From contig NC_043014.1 in NCBI RefSeq assembly GCF_006345805.1, forward strand, positions 36,332,001 through 36,396,000: 64,000 nt of DNA, in the 5' to 3' direction. Positions 12,001-42,000 of this stretch are shown here, one piece after another. The stretch is from Octopus sinensis (Eukaryota). How positions within the stretch are numbered: position 1 is the stretch's first letter; each line of letters opens with the position of its first letter. The position numbers were made by a program.

Positions 12001-15000
12001 GAGCAGTGCCCAACATTTAATGGAGGGAGAACCCAACAAAACAAAGGTTATATGGGAATGTATCAACTTTCTCATCAATCATCTAAGAGCGTACGTTGGG
12101 TTTTGCTGACCATTGCTGGAGAAGTAATGAAGAACTTGTGAGTGACGAGTTGTTGTGGGCACCAAATCACGGTACCACGGCGGCTGGAAGACCACGGAAG
12201 ACATATATACAACAGCTTGCAGAAGATTTTGGATGCCAAGTTGAAGACCTAAAAACACTAATGGAAGATCGGGAGTGATGGAGAGAGTTAGTCAGGCTGG
12301 CCTGGGCAATTGACCTGACTGAATGAAACTTGTGTTCGATAGTGCAATAGAAACACGCAATAGAAATAAAAATAAAGACAATGGAGTTGAATACGTGCAA
12401 AAAAAGAAACGGAAGTAAAAATAGAACGAGTAAACTGACCTCTTACAACTCTAGGTTTTGAAGATCCTCGATTTGTTGAACATTTGTAGTATGTCGCATC
12501 CTCACAAGAGGGATAACGTTTCGAGCAGGTAACCACACCTTTCTTATCTGCAGGGAACGTAGGTACAGTACAGTCAAAACCCTTTCTCCTGGTTACTACC
12601 TCAAAAATTCGTGACTTCAATTGAAGATCGATTTGAACAACAACTTCACTGTGATTTCGCACGAGAAAAAACTGAAGAAGATTTTTTATATCATACCGAC
12701 ATTTTATAGTTAAGAATGTTGCGTGTGCAAAATCAATATTGCTTGAAGGAAACACATCTGCAATCTCAATAACTGCATAGAAAAAAAACATAAATCAGAG
12801 ATAGATGTTATAAAGAAATATATAAATGTAACTATAGAAGAAGAAGAAGAAGAAGAAGAAGAAGAAGAAGAAGAAGAAGAAGAAGAAGAAGAAGAAGAAG
12901 AAGAAGAAGAAGAAGAAGAAGAGAAGAAGAAGAAGAAGAAGAAGAAGAAGAAGAAGAAGAAGAAGAAGAAGAAGAAGAAGAAGAAGAAGAAGAAGAAGAA
13001 GAAGAAGAAGAAGAAGAAGAATGACTGAAGTAGGAAAAAGAGAACAAATAAAAATAACGGTTGTTGTGAATACGGATTACATCTATCCACAAATAAAACT
13101 TTGCAGATAGTTTTTGATATTTTGTATTATACTAACATACCTGTGTCGTCAAAATGCCGACATAGATTCATCAATGTGGTAAATATATGCACCTGCACAA
13201 AATTTAAGCTCTTCAAGTATCAAAACGGTTCTAACGTCTCAGTTGAAAATAACTTGATACATAGTATGTATTTACGGACACACACACATACACATGATAT
13301 ATGCATATAATATATGTATATATATATACATGCATACATTCATACATACATACTTGTATATCATATAGAAAGAGAGAGACAAATTTATATATATAGATAT
13401 ATTGGTTGTTACATCTATATATTAGTATATATGCATGCATATCTATGCATTTATTTATCGAAATCTTTCTGCCTCATTCACTCTCTCTCTCTCTCTCTCT
13501 CTCTCTCTCTCTCTCTCTCTTGCTCTCTCTCTAGGAGTCACTGTAAGACGCTTGCTTCCCAGCCATACAGCTGGGAAGCAAATGTCTTAAAATATTAGAA
13601 TTTTTGTCATTTGCCTTTTCTGAACAGCCCTACAACATGATAGGATACTGCTCATAGAGACAAAATATTAAAAAAATTTTAATATATTCCTTTAACATTT
13701 CCTTTCATATTGATATCAATATAATAATTATTGTTCAAAATTAAAATAATGGTGTGGATTCAAAATGCCGATGTCGGGCTTTATTACCCGTCAATCAACC
13801 AGTTTCGTCTATACACTTTTTCTCTTTTGTTCTACTGCACCAGATTTTAAGTATTTTATGTCTAAATGTAGCTTATCACTAGTCAAACATGATTTTAAAA
13901 AACTAAATTTGATTTGGATTAAAAGTGAATTAGTGAGACTACTTGGAAGACGCCAACTGCAACAAAAAGCTACGTTAAGAATATTATTCAACTACTACCG
14001 TAGTGTACACATAAGTTTTTATGTGTATATACAAGTTCGAAAGAACATATGATGATATATGCTAAATTTATAGGGTCTACAAGAAACTTCATATATGCAA
14101 AATTGTTCAAACTTATATATAACTATATATAATAATTGTTCTAATTTATTTATTCGTATTAATATAAACTTTAGTTTTAGTAAATAAGAAAGTAACACAA
14201 ATTTACTTGGTTATTAGAGGAGAATAGCATCATAAATCAATGTTTATTATATATTGATTGAAATGGTTCTTTTTCTTAGTTTGATTTATAATAATATATT
14301 TGTATATTATTTAAGCAATATTAATACATATTTTCGCTGGTCTCAATGGAGAAATTACCGATTCACTTATCTTTACAAGACTTTCCTATTCCACCTAGAA
14401 AGGATTTCATGAAGGATCTGATTAATAAGACTTTTGAATTCATTCATAGAATCCGTTGGGTGGCTTTTTACCATGAAAAGGATTTTATAACAGAAAATAA
14501 CCCACATAAAAAAGATACTGATCTTTTTAAAAAGAACTTTGAGACGAAGAAATTTACACCACCAAACTGCCATTTGGAGGCTTTTGAAGACGATTTATGG
14601 AATATTGTCAAGAAAATTAAATTTGTTAAATATTCCCTCTGGGAAATTGAACATTTAAAGAAACTAAATTCTTTACTATGTGATCTTAAAAGAAAAAAAT
14701 GGGATTATGGAGCAATGAAACTTATATGACTAGGATCTATTAAAATATCATGAATGAATGAAGAAAGCGATTACTAGTGATTATAAAGTAGTAAGTAAAA
14801 GGTTTTAAGGTTCATTAACTTAGATGCGAAGAAAATTATGAATGACTAGGGCCCTGATGATAGAACAGAGACTTTTGTGTCTATGAGGCCATGGATAACT
14901 TTAAAAGATCACAAGGAAAACAACTTTTTAAACTCTAAAGTGAGAATAATTTTCCCAGGCCGATCTGACCTGAGTACATTAAGTAAAGCTTTTCTTGATA

Positions 15001-39000: not shown

Positions 39001-42000
39001 AGAATGTTACGTGCAGTGCCCTACATTTAATGGAGGGAGCACCCAACAAAACAAAGGTTATATGGGAATGTATCAACTTTCTCATCAATCATCTAAGAGC
39101 GTACGTTGGGTTTTGCTGACCATTGCTGGAGAAGTAAAGAAGAACTTGTGAGTAACGAGTTGTTGTGGGCACCAAATCACGGTACCACAGCGACTGGAAG
39201 ACCACGGAAGACATATATACAACAGCTTGCAGAAGATGTTGGATGCCAAGTTGAAGGCCTAAAAACACTAATGGAAGATCGGGAGCGATGGAGAGAGGTA
39301 GTCAGGCTGGCCTGGGCAATTGACCTGATTGGATGAAACTTGTGTTCGATAGTGCAATAGAAACACGCAATAGAAATAAAAATAAAGACAATGGAGTTGA
39401 ATACGTGCAAAAAAAGAAACGGAAGTAAAAATAGAACGAGTAAACTTACCTCTTACAAGTCTAGATTTTGAAGATTCTTCATTTGTTGAACATGTGTAGT
39501 ATGTCGCATCCTCACAAGAGGGATAACGTTTCGTGCAGGTAATCACACCTATCTTACTTAGAGAGGATGTAGGTGGAGTACAGTCAAAACCCTTTTTCCT
39601 GGTTACTACCTCAAAAATTCCTGTCTTTTTTTGATAATCGATTTGAACAATAACTTCACTGTGATTTCGCACGAGAAAAAACTGAATAAAATTTTTTACA
39701 TCATACCGACATTTTATAGTTAAGAATGTTCTGTTTGCAAAATCAATATTGCTTGAAGGTAACACATCTGCAATCTCAATAACTGTATAGAAAAAAAAAA
39801 CATAAATCAGAGATAGATGTTATAAAAAATATATAAATGTAACTATAGAAGAAGAAGAAGAAGAAGAAGAAGAAGAAGAAGAAGAATGACAGAAGTAGGA
39901 AAAAGAGAACCAATTAAAATAACGGTTGTTGTGAATACGGATTACATCTATCCACAAATAAAACTTTGCAGTTAGTTTTTGATATTTATTATTATACTAA
40001 CATACCTGTGTCGTCAAAATGCTGACAGTTTTATTAATCATAGAAAATAGTTCATCAACACAATGGGAAAAACCTGTGATAGATGTCATCAATGTGGTAA
40101 ATATATGCACATGCACTCAAGTTAGGCTCTTTAAGTATTAAATACGGTTCTAACGTCTCAATTGAAAATAACTTGATACATAAGTATGTATTTACGGACA
40201 CACACACGGACTTACACATACACACACACTCACATACACACATATATACATATAAATATATGTACATATATATATATATGTATATATATATATATATATA
40301 TATATATATATATATATATATATATATGCATACATTCTACATACATACATGTATATCATACATAGAAAGAGAGAGACAGATTTATATATATAGATATATA
40401 GGTTGATACATCTATACATTAGTATATATGCATGCATATCTATGCATTTATTTATCGACATCATTCTGCCTCATTCTCTCTCTCTCTCTCTCTCTCTTTC
40501 TCTCTCTCTCTCTCTCTCTCTCTCTCTCTCTCTCTCTCTCTCTCTCTTGCTCTCTCTCTAGGAGTCACTGTAGGACGCTTAATTCCCAGCCGTATAGCTG
40601 TGAAGCAAGTGTCTTAAAATATTAGAATTTTTGTCATTTGCCTTTTCTGAACAGCCCTACAACATGATAGAATACTGATCATAGAGACAAAATATAAAAA
40701 TATTTTTATATTTTTATCAAATAATCTTGTTGTTAAAATAATTTATTCAAAATGGACGTTAAAAAGCCACACTACATAAAGTTAAGCAAAAAAATTCATT
40801 TTTTATAAAAAGTAATTTATACTAAAGAAAATAAATAGAACACTTTGTATTGATTTGTGCTGTCGTTTATCTTTGGTTGTGTGTGCAACTAAGAAATAGT
40901 TTAGTTCATACATGTCTAGTCCCTTTAATATCACGCAAAATTTGATACAAATTTGAGAATTAAAATTAATAACTTTTTTCTAATGGATAACATTTTACGA
41001 AACCTTTACCAATATATTCCTTTAACAATTCCTTTCATATTAATATCAATATAATAATTCTTGTTCAAAATTAAAAGAATGGTGTGGATTCAAAATGTCG
41101 ATGTCGGGCTTTATTACCCGTCAGTCAACCAGTTTGGTCTATACGCTTTTTCTCTTTTGTTCTACTGCACCAGACTTTAAGTATTTTATGTCTAAATGTA
41201 GCTTATCACTAGTCAAACATAATTTTTAAAAACTAAATTTGATTTGGATTAAAAGTGAATTAGTGAGACTACTTGGAAGACGCCAACTGCAACAAAAAGC
41301 TACGTTAAGAATATTATTCAACTACTACCGTAGTGTACACATAAGTTTTTATGTGTATATACAAGTTCGAAAGAACATATGATGATATATGCTACATTTT
41401 ATAGGGTCTACAAGAAACATTCATATATGCAAAATTGTTCAAAATTTTATATAATTATATATAATAATTGTTCTAATTTATTTATTCGTATTAATATAAA
41501 CTTTAGTTTTAGTAAATAAGAAAGTAACACAAATTTACTTGGTTTATTAGAGGAGAATAGCATCATAAATCAATGTTTATTATATATTGATTGAAATGGT
41601 TCTTTTTCTTAGTTTGATTTATAATAATATATTTGTATATTATTTAAGCAATATTAATACATATTTTCGCTGGTCTCAATGGAGAAATTACCGATTCACT
41701 TATCTTTACAAGACTTTCCTATTCCACCTAGAAAGGATTTCATGAAGGATCTGATTAATAAGACTTTTGAATTGATTCATAGAATCCGTTGGGCGGCTTT
41801 TTACCATGAAAAGGATTTTATAAAAGAAAATAACCCTCATAAAGAAGATACTGAACTTTTTAAAAAGATCTTTGAGACAAAGAAATTTCCACCACCATAC
41901 CGCCATTTGGAGGCTTTTGAAGACGATTTATGGAATATTGTCAAGAATATTAAATTTGTTGTATATTCCCTCCGGGAAATTGAACATTTAAAGAAACTAA

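Follow-up and report, generated by a model that had tools for sequence, protein, structure and literature searches.

Among invertebrates, the VCBPs of amphioxus are variable immunoglobulin superfamily (IgSF) proteins tied to non-self recognition, and among mammalian surface proteins, some CEACAMs are anchored by glycosylphosphatidylinositol (GPI), as is CD48. The N-domains of the mammalian CEACAMs evolve in the mode that we propose below, namely selection together with exchange between paralogs (according to passages of PMC7042247 and PMC8860441). Cephalopod immunity is described, in the portions of the reviews drawn on here, as innate, with no known diversified recognition receptors. Here, we analyse a 64,000-nt stretch of the Octopus sinensis genome (contig NC_043014.1, positions 36,332,001 to 36,396,000; hereafter, the window), which appears to hold two neighbouring genes of an Octopus-restricted tandem array, copy 1 lying in duplication unit 1 and copy 2 in unit 2. 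Each gene would encode a small surface protein in which a signal peptide is followed by a membrane-distal V-type immunoglobulin (Ig) domain (D1), another domain of Ig-like fold (D2), a short stalk and a hydrophobic, GPI-signal-like tail. We consider it probable that positive diversifying selection acts on the tip of D1, with exchange between paralogs as a second source and carrier of variants.

The two D1 exons (copy 1, 12440..12772; copy 2, 39450..39782; both on the minus strand, 333 nt each and phase 1-1) were singled out in an initial annotation of the window as a V-like exon whose divergence between paralogs is almost purely amino-acid-changing. Our recount returned the figures given there: the exons align without indels and differ at 34 nucleotides. 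The differences, 18 transitions and 16 transversions, amount to a divergence of 10.2%. The sequence is open in both copies in only one of the six frames (minus strand, frame 2), and in that frame 26 codons differ, 25 by replacement and one, codon 71 (ACG/ACA), synonymously. Multiple changes per codon were also confirmed, with two to three changes in each of seven codons, and every one of the reported patches (DLQLKSR/DYQKKTG, VPTFPADKK/PPTSSLSKI, NRG/NEE and HA/NR) is present. All five cysteines of D1 and the string RYPSCEDATYY are the same in both copies.

Counting by the method of Nei and Gojobori (S=73.7, N=256.3, Sd=1.67, Nd=32.33) gave dS=0.023 and dN=0.138 for D1, a dN/dS of 6.0 (one-sided Fisher p=0.0076). 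Pairwise likelihood under the GY94 model returned an omega of 9.25 with F1x4 (likelihood ratio test (LRT) 9.88, p=0.0017 vs omega=1) and of 8.0 with F3x4 (LRT 8.53, p=0.0035 vs omega=1), while D1 and D2 taken jointly gave 4.3-5.0 (p=0.0007-0.0016). The dN/dS of the D1 exon pair is, by each of these estimates (6.0-9.25, p=0.0017-0.0076), significantly above 1, as is required for positive diversifying selection. These values bear directly on a non-adaptive account in which constraint has been relaxed or one copy is decaying to a pseudogene. Young duplicates often lose constraint, and D2 by itself is compatible with omega=1; however, relaxation pushes omega towards 1 and not to 6-9, and D1 rejects omega=1. 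Both copies also keep open frames, splice sites, all cysteines and the fold core, and the changes avoid the strands and the opposite-end loops of the domain (see below). We find relaxed constraint scarcely credible as an explanation of the D1 pair.

Non-coding DNA provides a neutral yardstick. Intron sequence within 300 nt of D1 carries 13 mismatches in 422 aligned columns (3.1%), and aligned non-coding DNA across the whole unit carries 591 in 18,736 (3.15%), compared with 32 non-synonymous differences over 256 sites in D1 (Fisher p=8.8e-11 against the unit-wide figure). Synonymous divergence of D1 and D2 together is 2.6%, statistically indistinguishable from that of non-coding DNA (p=1.0). 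An exon diverged by 10.2% is thus set in introns diverged by about 3%, with a dN (0.138) four times the local intron divergence and a dS (0.023) equal to it, and the diversifying selection proposed in the initial annotation is supported by this comparison. The dN of D1 likewise lies above a background of 7.5% (binomial p=0.003). Counted per 100 nt, the differences number 13, 12 and 7 within the D1 exon, 0-6 over the 900 nt downstream and 2 in the 95 nt upstream, so that the rise and fall of divergence match the splice sites. Clustered differences, together with the seven codons bearing two to three changes, might be left by an unselected mutational process local to the exon, for example hypermutation or multi-nucleotide mutation in clusters. 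Such a process should strike synonymous sites proportionally, however, and only one of the 26 changed codons is synonymous; nor would it end at splice sites or spare the cysteines and core positions, and we regard it as exceedingly improbable.

The non-coding divergence is itself block-like: about 1% over 2001-9500, 4-7% over 9500-11500, about 3% over 11500-12400 and 3-8% farther upstream, reaching 11.6% in the last aligned block (range far upstream, 7-12%). Such a pattern points to tracts that were converted or recombined recently, the breakpoints lying near 9500 and 11500. Blocks of this kind (about 1% over 2001-9500, 4-8% elsewhere) are also what would be left by recent conversion between old genes that have escaped from concerted evolution, where conversion homogenises the introns, leader and tail, selection removes conversions of the Ig exons and the old divergence of these exons is retained. 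The lack of change in the three small coding exons and the variant states common to several paralogs (both described below) fit such a history as well. However, it predicts high synonymous divergence, and D1 and D2 together have 3.67 synonymous differences over 141 sites, compared with an expectation of 9.9 at 7% divergence (Poisson P(≤3)=0.011, P(≤4)=0.03) and of 14.1 at 10% (P≤0.002); measured against 5% divergence, the synonymous deficit is non-significant (P=0.08-0.17). On balance, escape from concerted evolution seems to us rather unlikely, and because it also needs selection for diversity, it differs from the favoured reading of positive selection on the D1 tip in timing and not in kind.

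Structure predictions and searches were run exon by exon and not on the spliced protein. The AlphaFold2 model of D1, made from a 27-sequence alignment (mean predicted local distance difference test score (pLDDT) 90.7, predicted template modelling score (pTM) 0.84), has nine strands (residues 2-7, 19-27, 33-38, 42-50, 55-61, 65-67, 77-85 and 94-99, plus a short G strand) and is predicted to form a sandwich with the extra C' and C'' strands that mark a V-type domain. A Foldseek search of the PDB with this model gave a single match at E≤0.001, the nanobody 5h8o_A (E 9.5e-4, template modelling score (TM) 0.61), and the top matches listed are nearly all nanobodies, heavy-chain variable domains (VH), T-cell receptor (TCR) V domains and the V-set domain of a voltage-gated sodium channel (VGSC) beta subunit (TM 0.50-0.64). 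In a V domain, some 65-75 residues separate the cysteine of strand B from that of strand F, the latter ending a D-x-x-x-Y-x-C motif. In D1, C24 and C97 are 73 residues apart and the motif D91-A-T-Y-Y95-K-C97 is present; among 27 family sequences, C97, D91 and Y95 are invariant and C24 nearly so, and three further cysteines beyond the B-F pair are invariant. Strand C (QFFLVR) has no conserved Trp, the family consensus there being F/L. The label ‘V-like’ used in the initial annotation holds, then, at the level of the predicted fold, with V domains as the nearest folds. According to the model, D1 is of V type but a distant outlier, because those nearest folds lie at TM 0.5-0.64 and one match alone falls at E<0.001.

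We delimited the loops of D1 by combining the DSSP string of the model with textbook V-domain topology, which places the BC loop at residues 28-32 (equivalent to complementarity-determining region (CDR) 1), the C'C'' loop at residues 51-54 (CDR2), the DE loop at residues 68-76 (hypervariable loop 4, HV4) and the FG loop at residues 100-102 (CDR3). Replaced residues occupy 13 of the 21 positions in these tip loops, compared with three of the 25 in the loops at the opposite end and nine of the 64 elsewhere (tip loops vs rest, p=1.5e-5; tip vs opposite loops, p=0.0006). The same bias is seen across seven close paralog D1s, in which 17/21 tip-loop positions are variable vs 5/25 in the opposite loops (p=7e-5). 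Mapped on the model, the variable sites are therefore concentrated in the BC, C'C'', DE and FG loops, and this gathering in CDR-equivalent loops is consistent with a candidate binding surface. Prediction of a complex of two D1 copies returned scores of 0.02 and 0.18 vs a mark of 0.32, a result that weighs neither for nor against self-binding.

The D2 exons (copy 1, 10641..10946; copy 2, 37580..37885; both on the minus strand, copy 1 being phase 1-1) show a bias that is like that of D1 and weaker, with 22 of 306 nt differing (7.2%) in 19 replacement and two synonymous codons. The AlphaFold2 model of D2 (pLDDT 94.2) is a seven-strand Ig-like sandwich, in which C24, W39 and C86 are invariant in 18 sequences. 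Foldseek found no match for it at E≤0.001; the best were KIR2DL3, VCAM-1 and domains of major histocompatibility complex (MHC)/beta2-microglobulin type, mixed with non-Ig sandwiches, an ambiguous placement from which no particular Ig set was assigned. A profile of the family searched against PDB sequences matched antigen-binding fragment (Fab) light chains across the end of the V domain and the C domain (E 7e-6). This match is not taken to place D2 in the C1-set, since the top matches are disulfide-engineered Fabs and cysteines may drive the score. Conserved cysteines number five in D1 and three in D2, odd counts that suggest one interdomain disulfide. N-glycosylation sequons also vary between the copies: N16-R-T, made by the HA-to-NR patch, is present in D1 of copy 2 only, and in D2, N50-V-S of copy 1 only is exchanged for N90-V-S of copy 2 only.

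The genes that carry these exons lie in a tandem duplication of about 27 kb, delimited by self-BLAST. Unit 1 (1..25751) extends past the left end of the window, and unit 2 (26935..57458) contains its own transposable element (TE) insertions at 43486-45117 and 53125-55445. Identity is 97.2% between 1-11155 and 26935-38103, with colinear blocks running on to 25751 and 57458. Mapping related proteins on the window and reading the junctions revealed one complete five-exon gene in each unit, on the minus strand, with its exons ordered as signal peptide, V-like D1, second Ig-like D2, mini-exon and hydrophobic GPI-signal-like tail and with all introns in phase 1. In copy 1, the start codon and signal-peptide exon (21958..22003, minus strand) encodes MLLVMMLLMSSYTSA followed by 1 nt (phase 1) and the donor gtaagt; beyond D1 and D2 come a 33-nt mini-exon of phase 1-1, (G)TEQQAIRDNA (3991..4023, minus strand), and the coding part of the last exon, (D)KLYDANIITKILKFAATLLVIGHFR plus stop (2520..2599, minus strand). 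The counterparts in copy 2, all on the minus strand, are the signal-peptide exon at 51388..51433, the mini-exon at 30928..30960 and the coding part of the last exon, the hydrophobic tail plus stop, at 29454..29533. Between the copies, no nucleotide differs in the coding sequence of the signal peptide, the mini-exon or the tail. The frame is open and the splice sites are intact in each copy, with an AG acceptor and its polypyrimidine tract on one side of D1 and a GT donor on the other.

The N-terminus, MLLVMMLLMSSYTSA, has a mean hydropathy of 1.63. The C-terminus, ...RDNADKLYDANIITKILKFAATLLVIGHFR, has a best 15-residue Kyte-Doolittle window of 2.05 and no cytoplasmic part; as the last exon finishes ...DKLYDANIITKILKFAATLLVIGHFR and then stops, with nothing beyond the hydrophobic end, this end looks like a putative GPI-attachment signal. 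A set of alternative exons of the Dscam type was considered and rejected, because a separate start codon, signal peptide, stop codon and tail are present in each unit. A tblastn search with both D1 peptides found no third D1-like exon or pseudo-exon in the window, so a local donor cassette like the pseudo-V genes of the chicken is absent.

When 1.84 billion representative proteins were scanned exhaustively with HMMER, only 33 representatives reached E≤0.001. Every named relative comes from O. vulgaris, O. sinensis or O. bimaculoides and all are uncharacterised, being called ‘hypothetical predicted protein’, ‘uncharacterized protein LOC...’ or, once, ‘Ig-like domain-containing protein’. Their plan is a signal peptide, D1, D2 and sometimes a Thr-rich stalk; several have a hydrophobic C-terminal end, and one (P0028) has a transmembrane segment and a cytoplasmic tail. 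The closest relative, P0001 (726 aa, O. vulgaris), has 99% identity to the D1 of copy 1. This run-through gene model joins four array members and translates part of a tail exon in the wrong frame, and the array's annotation is therefore unreliable. Pfam gave no family for D1 of copy 1 at E≤10, and for D1 of copy 2 it gave PF00047 (ig) at 14.9 bits, below the cut-off of 21.8 (E 0.033). No Ig family, V-set or C2-set of Pfam was matched by either D2 exon or by six family proteins. In the ESM Atlas, the nearest clusters to one relative (P0013) are two-Ig V+C2 families of fasciclin-3-like, OX-2-like and CD80-like type, at 0.85-0.87, which is below 0.9 and makes them a lead only.

False duplications arise readily in assemblies of invertebrate genomes with high heterozygosity, and the two units, 97% alike over their first 11 kb, might be two haplotypes of one locus that the assembler has set in tandem, with the exon differences representing balanced allelic polymorphism. 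Several observations speak against this. Unique sequence joins the units in one contiguous window, they differ by kilobase-sized TEs (mariner-like at 15730-16677 in unit 1 only; open reading frames (ORFs) of reverse-transcriptase (RT) type at 53125-55445 in unit 2 only) and their upstream parts are 7-12% apart. Moreover, four units of one 73.6-Mb contig are crossed by P0001, the first copy-2-like, the second copy-1-like and the last two different again, and P0002, P0004 and P0005 represent more distinct D1s on that same contig. Further distinct D1 units on one contig indicate that a real array of many members exists, and false duplication of the locus appears very improbable.

The other array members also reveal where the D1 variants are shared. 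At the 25 differing D1 positions, both states are found among them at 14, the copy-1 state only at six, the copy-2 state only at five and neither state at none. Sequencing error, which we considered as a source of the D1 differences, was rejected because the variant states recur in this way among other paralogs (both states at 14/25 positions). When P0004 is compared with copy 1, only 1/50 residues differ in D2 and 23/110 in D1. The counterpart of the copy-1 unit in P0001, possibly from another assembly, differs from the window at five residues, and at 5/5 of these it has the copy-2 state. These comparisons point to gene conversion or unequal recombination as processes that may carry patches the size of an exon or smaller from one array member to another, and variant states shared as a mosaic indicate that paralog exchange adds to point substitution. 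A (GAA)n microsatellite, which reads (TTC)n on the strand of the genes, lies about 60 nt upstream of the D1 acceptor (12836-13044 and about 39848-39886) and is much longer in copy 1 than in copy 2. Simple repeats flanking fast-diversifying immune genes have been tied to instability in the case of sea urchin Sp185/333 (in a passage of PMC5103432).

In the favoured reading, the two copies would be young or largely homogenised, with non-coding DNA about 3% apart and three small coding exons the same. Amino acid changes in D1 would have accrued about four times faster than change in neutral DNA, with synonymous sites at the neutral level, and would have fallen mainly in the four loops of the N-terminal tip (BC, C'C'', DE and FG), the usual site of ligand contact in V domains. 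Positive diversifying selection would then be acting on a putative ligand-contact surface. The variants themselves may arise by point or multi-nucleotide substitution and may also be carried as short patches among array members by gene conversion or unequal recombination. Elsewhere, purifying constraint is evident, as the small exons are unchanged and all cysteines and the D..Y.C core are kept.

A number of points weigh against this reading. The test of selection compares two DNA sequences only and is hence one pairwise comparison, and the seven multi-hit codons could in part stem from mutations of several nucleotides at once or from the import of patches, neither of which the codon model allows for. 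Many of the D1 differences are not independent new substitutions, because 14/25 positions have states common to other paralogs, and part of the D1 divergence was accordingly acquired other than by new substitution since the duplication. The neutral yardstick varies with the block chosen, because non-coding divergence is very uneven, and set against a background of 10% the dN of D1 is non-significant (p=0.11). By itself, D2 has an omega of 2.8-3.0, which is non-significant (p=0.09-0.13), and its 7.2% divergence is no higher than that of its own flanks (4-7% over 9500-11500). Finally, the loops of any protein accept change better than strands do, and for the predicted placement of changes in D1, the loops at the opposite end of the model are the sole control.

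On this reading, the tip loops of D1 would bind a ligand. In both architecture and evolutionary mode, the genes are like those of surface proteins that recognise a partner subject to change, and the immune, allorecognition or gamete-recognition role put forward in the initial annotation may be entertained. As candidate partners, we would place microbial or other non-self ligands first, conspecific or self recognition second and gamete recognition third. The family is in any case a concrete candidate of its kind: octopus-restricted so far, predicted to be at the cell surface and built on a V domain, with dN/dS well above 1 at a CDR-like tip and with signs of an exchange of patches. It also illustrates that some families are invisible to Pfam and recognisable only after structure prediction, as is likewise indicated for Hydractinia Alr in part of PMC9546547. 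A full-text literature search found no paper on the family and none for its locus names, gene lists in supplements lying outside its coverage. The phenomenon is of a well-known kind, and the family and its occurrence in cephalopods appear to be undescribed.

We also offer a bolder proposal, which we judge distinctly unlikely: the array may be a germline-diversified recognition system, peculiar to octopuses within our searches, of GPI-anchored V-domain tags with tip loops that are maintained as different from one member to the next and possibly from one individual to another. If true, it could be a candidate variable receptor family of immune type, the first to be described from any cephalopod. 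It could instead be a candidate part of the skin cue that stops octopus suckers from gripping the animal's own skin; a chemical in octopus skin prevents sucker attachment, as stated in a passage of PMC9339708 that cites Nesher et al. 2014.

The remaining features of the window are related to mobile elements, all on the plus strand. Unit 1 alone carries a mariner-like transposase (15730-16677; Pfam Transposase_1, E 8e-9) and a GIY-YIG ORF (17297-17719). Unit 2 alone carries a 543-aa ORF (43486-45117), the end of which resembles by eye the GIY-YIG ORF of unit 1, and a run of RT-like ORFs (53125-55445). An RT fragment (7074-8157; RVT_1, E 3e-6, below the cut-off) lies within the shared block that is about 1% diverged. 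Outside the duplicated units, ORFs at 61901-62452 and 63615-63998 were read by eye as PIF1/Helitron-type helicase-like, the second having a GGTGKT Walker motif.

Neither Pfam nor the PDB profile search revealed sequence homology to the CEACAM, CD2-SLAM or Alr families, the profile search returning one carcinoembryonic antigen chain at a non-significant E of 0.044, and the likeness of the octopus genes to these families is one of architecture and evolutionary mode only. Snail FREPs are, like the octopus genes, secreted or surface IgSF proteins of an invertebrate, with diversified Ig domains tied to non-self recognition (as outlined in part of PMC7588048). The octopus genes lack both the fibrinogen domain of FREPs and the chitin-binding domain of VCBPs. 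Hydractinia Alr offers a further invertebrate parallel, with tandem IgSF clusters, domains that escape sequence profiles and a variable membrane-distal V-like domain (parts of PMC9546547 and PMC8282982). Alr proteins differ in being transmembrane and in binding homophilically (in the latter source, again in part), and they belong to another phylum. The two-domain plan of the octopus genes, a signal peptide followed by a V domain and a second domain of Ig-like fold, corresponds to that of proteins of the CD2/SLAM type (CD48 and CD58) and of CD200/CD80-like proteins, in which the second domain is C2-like. As regards the CEACAM family, the known ligands are bacterial adhesins, and the N-domain is without a B-F disulfide, whereas octopus D1 keeps the B-F cysteines. 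The mammalian CEACAMs, including bovine CEACAM32, are nonetheless like the octopus genes in forming tandem arrays of IgSF surface proteins in which the membrane-distal V-like N-domain is the fast-evolving part and gene conversion or domain shuffling takes place among paralogs.

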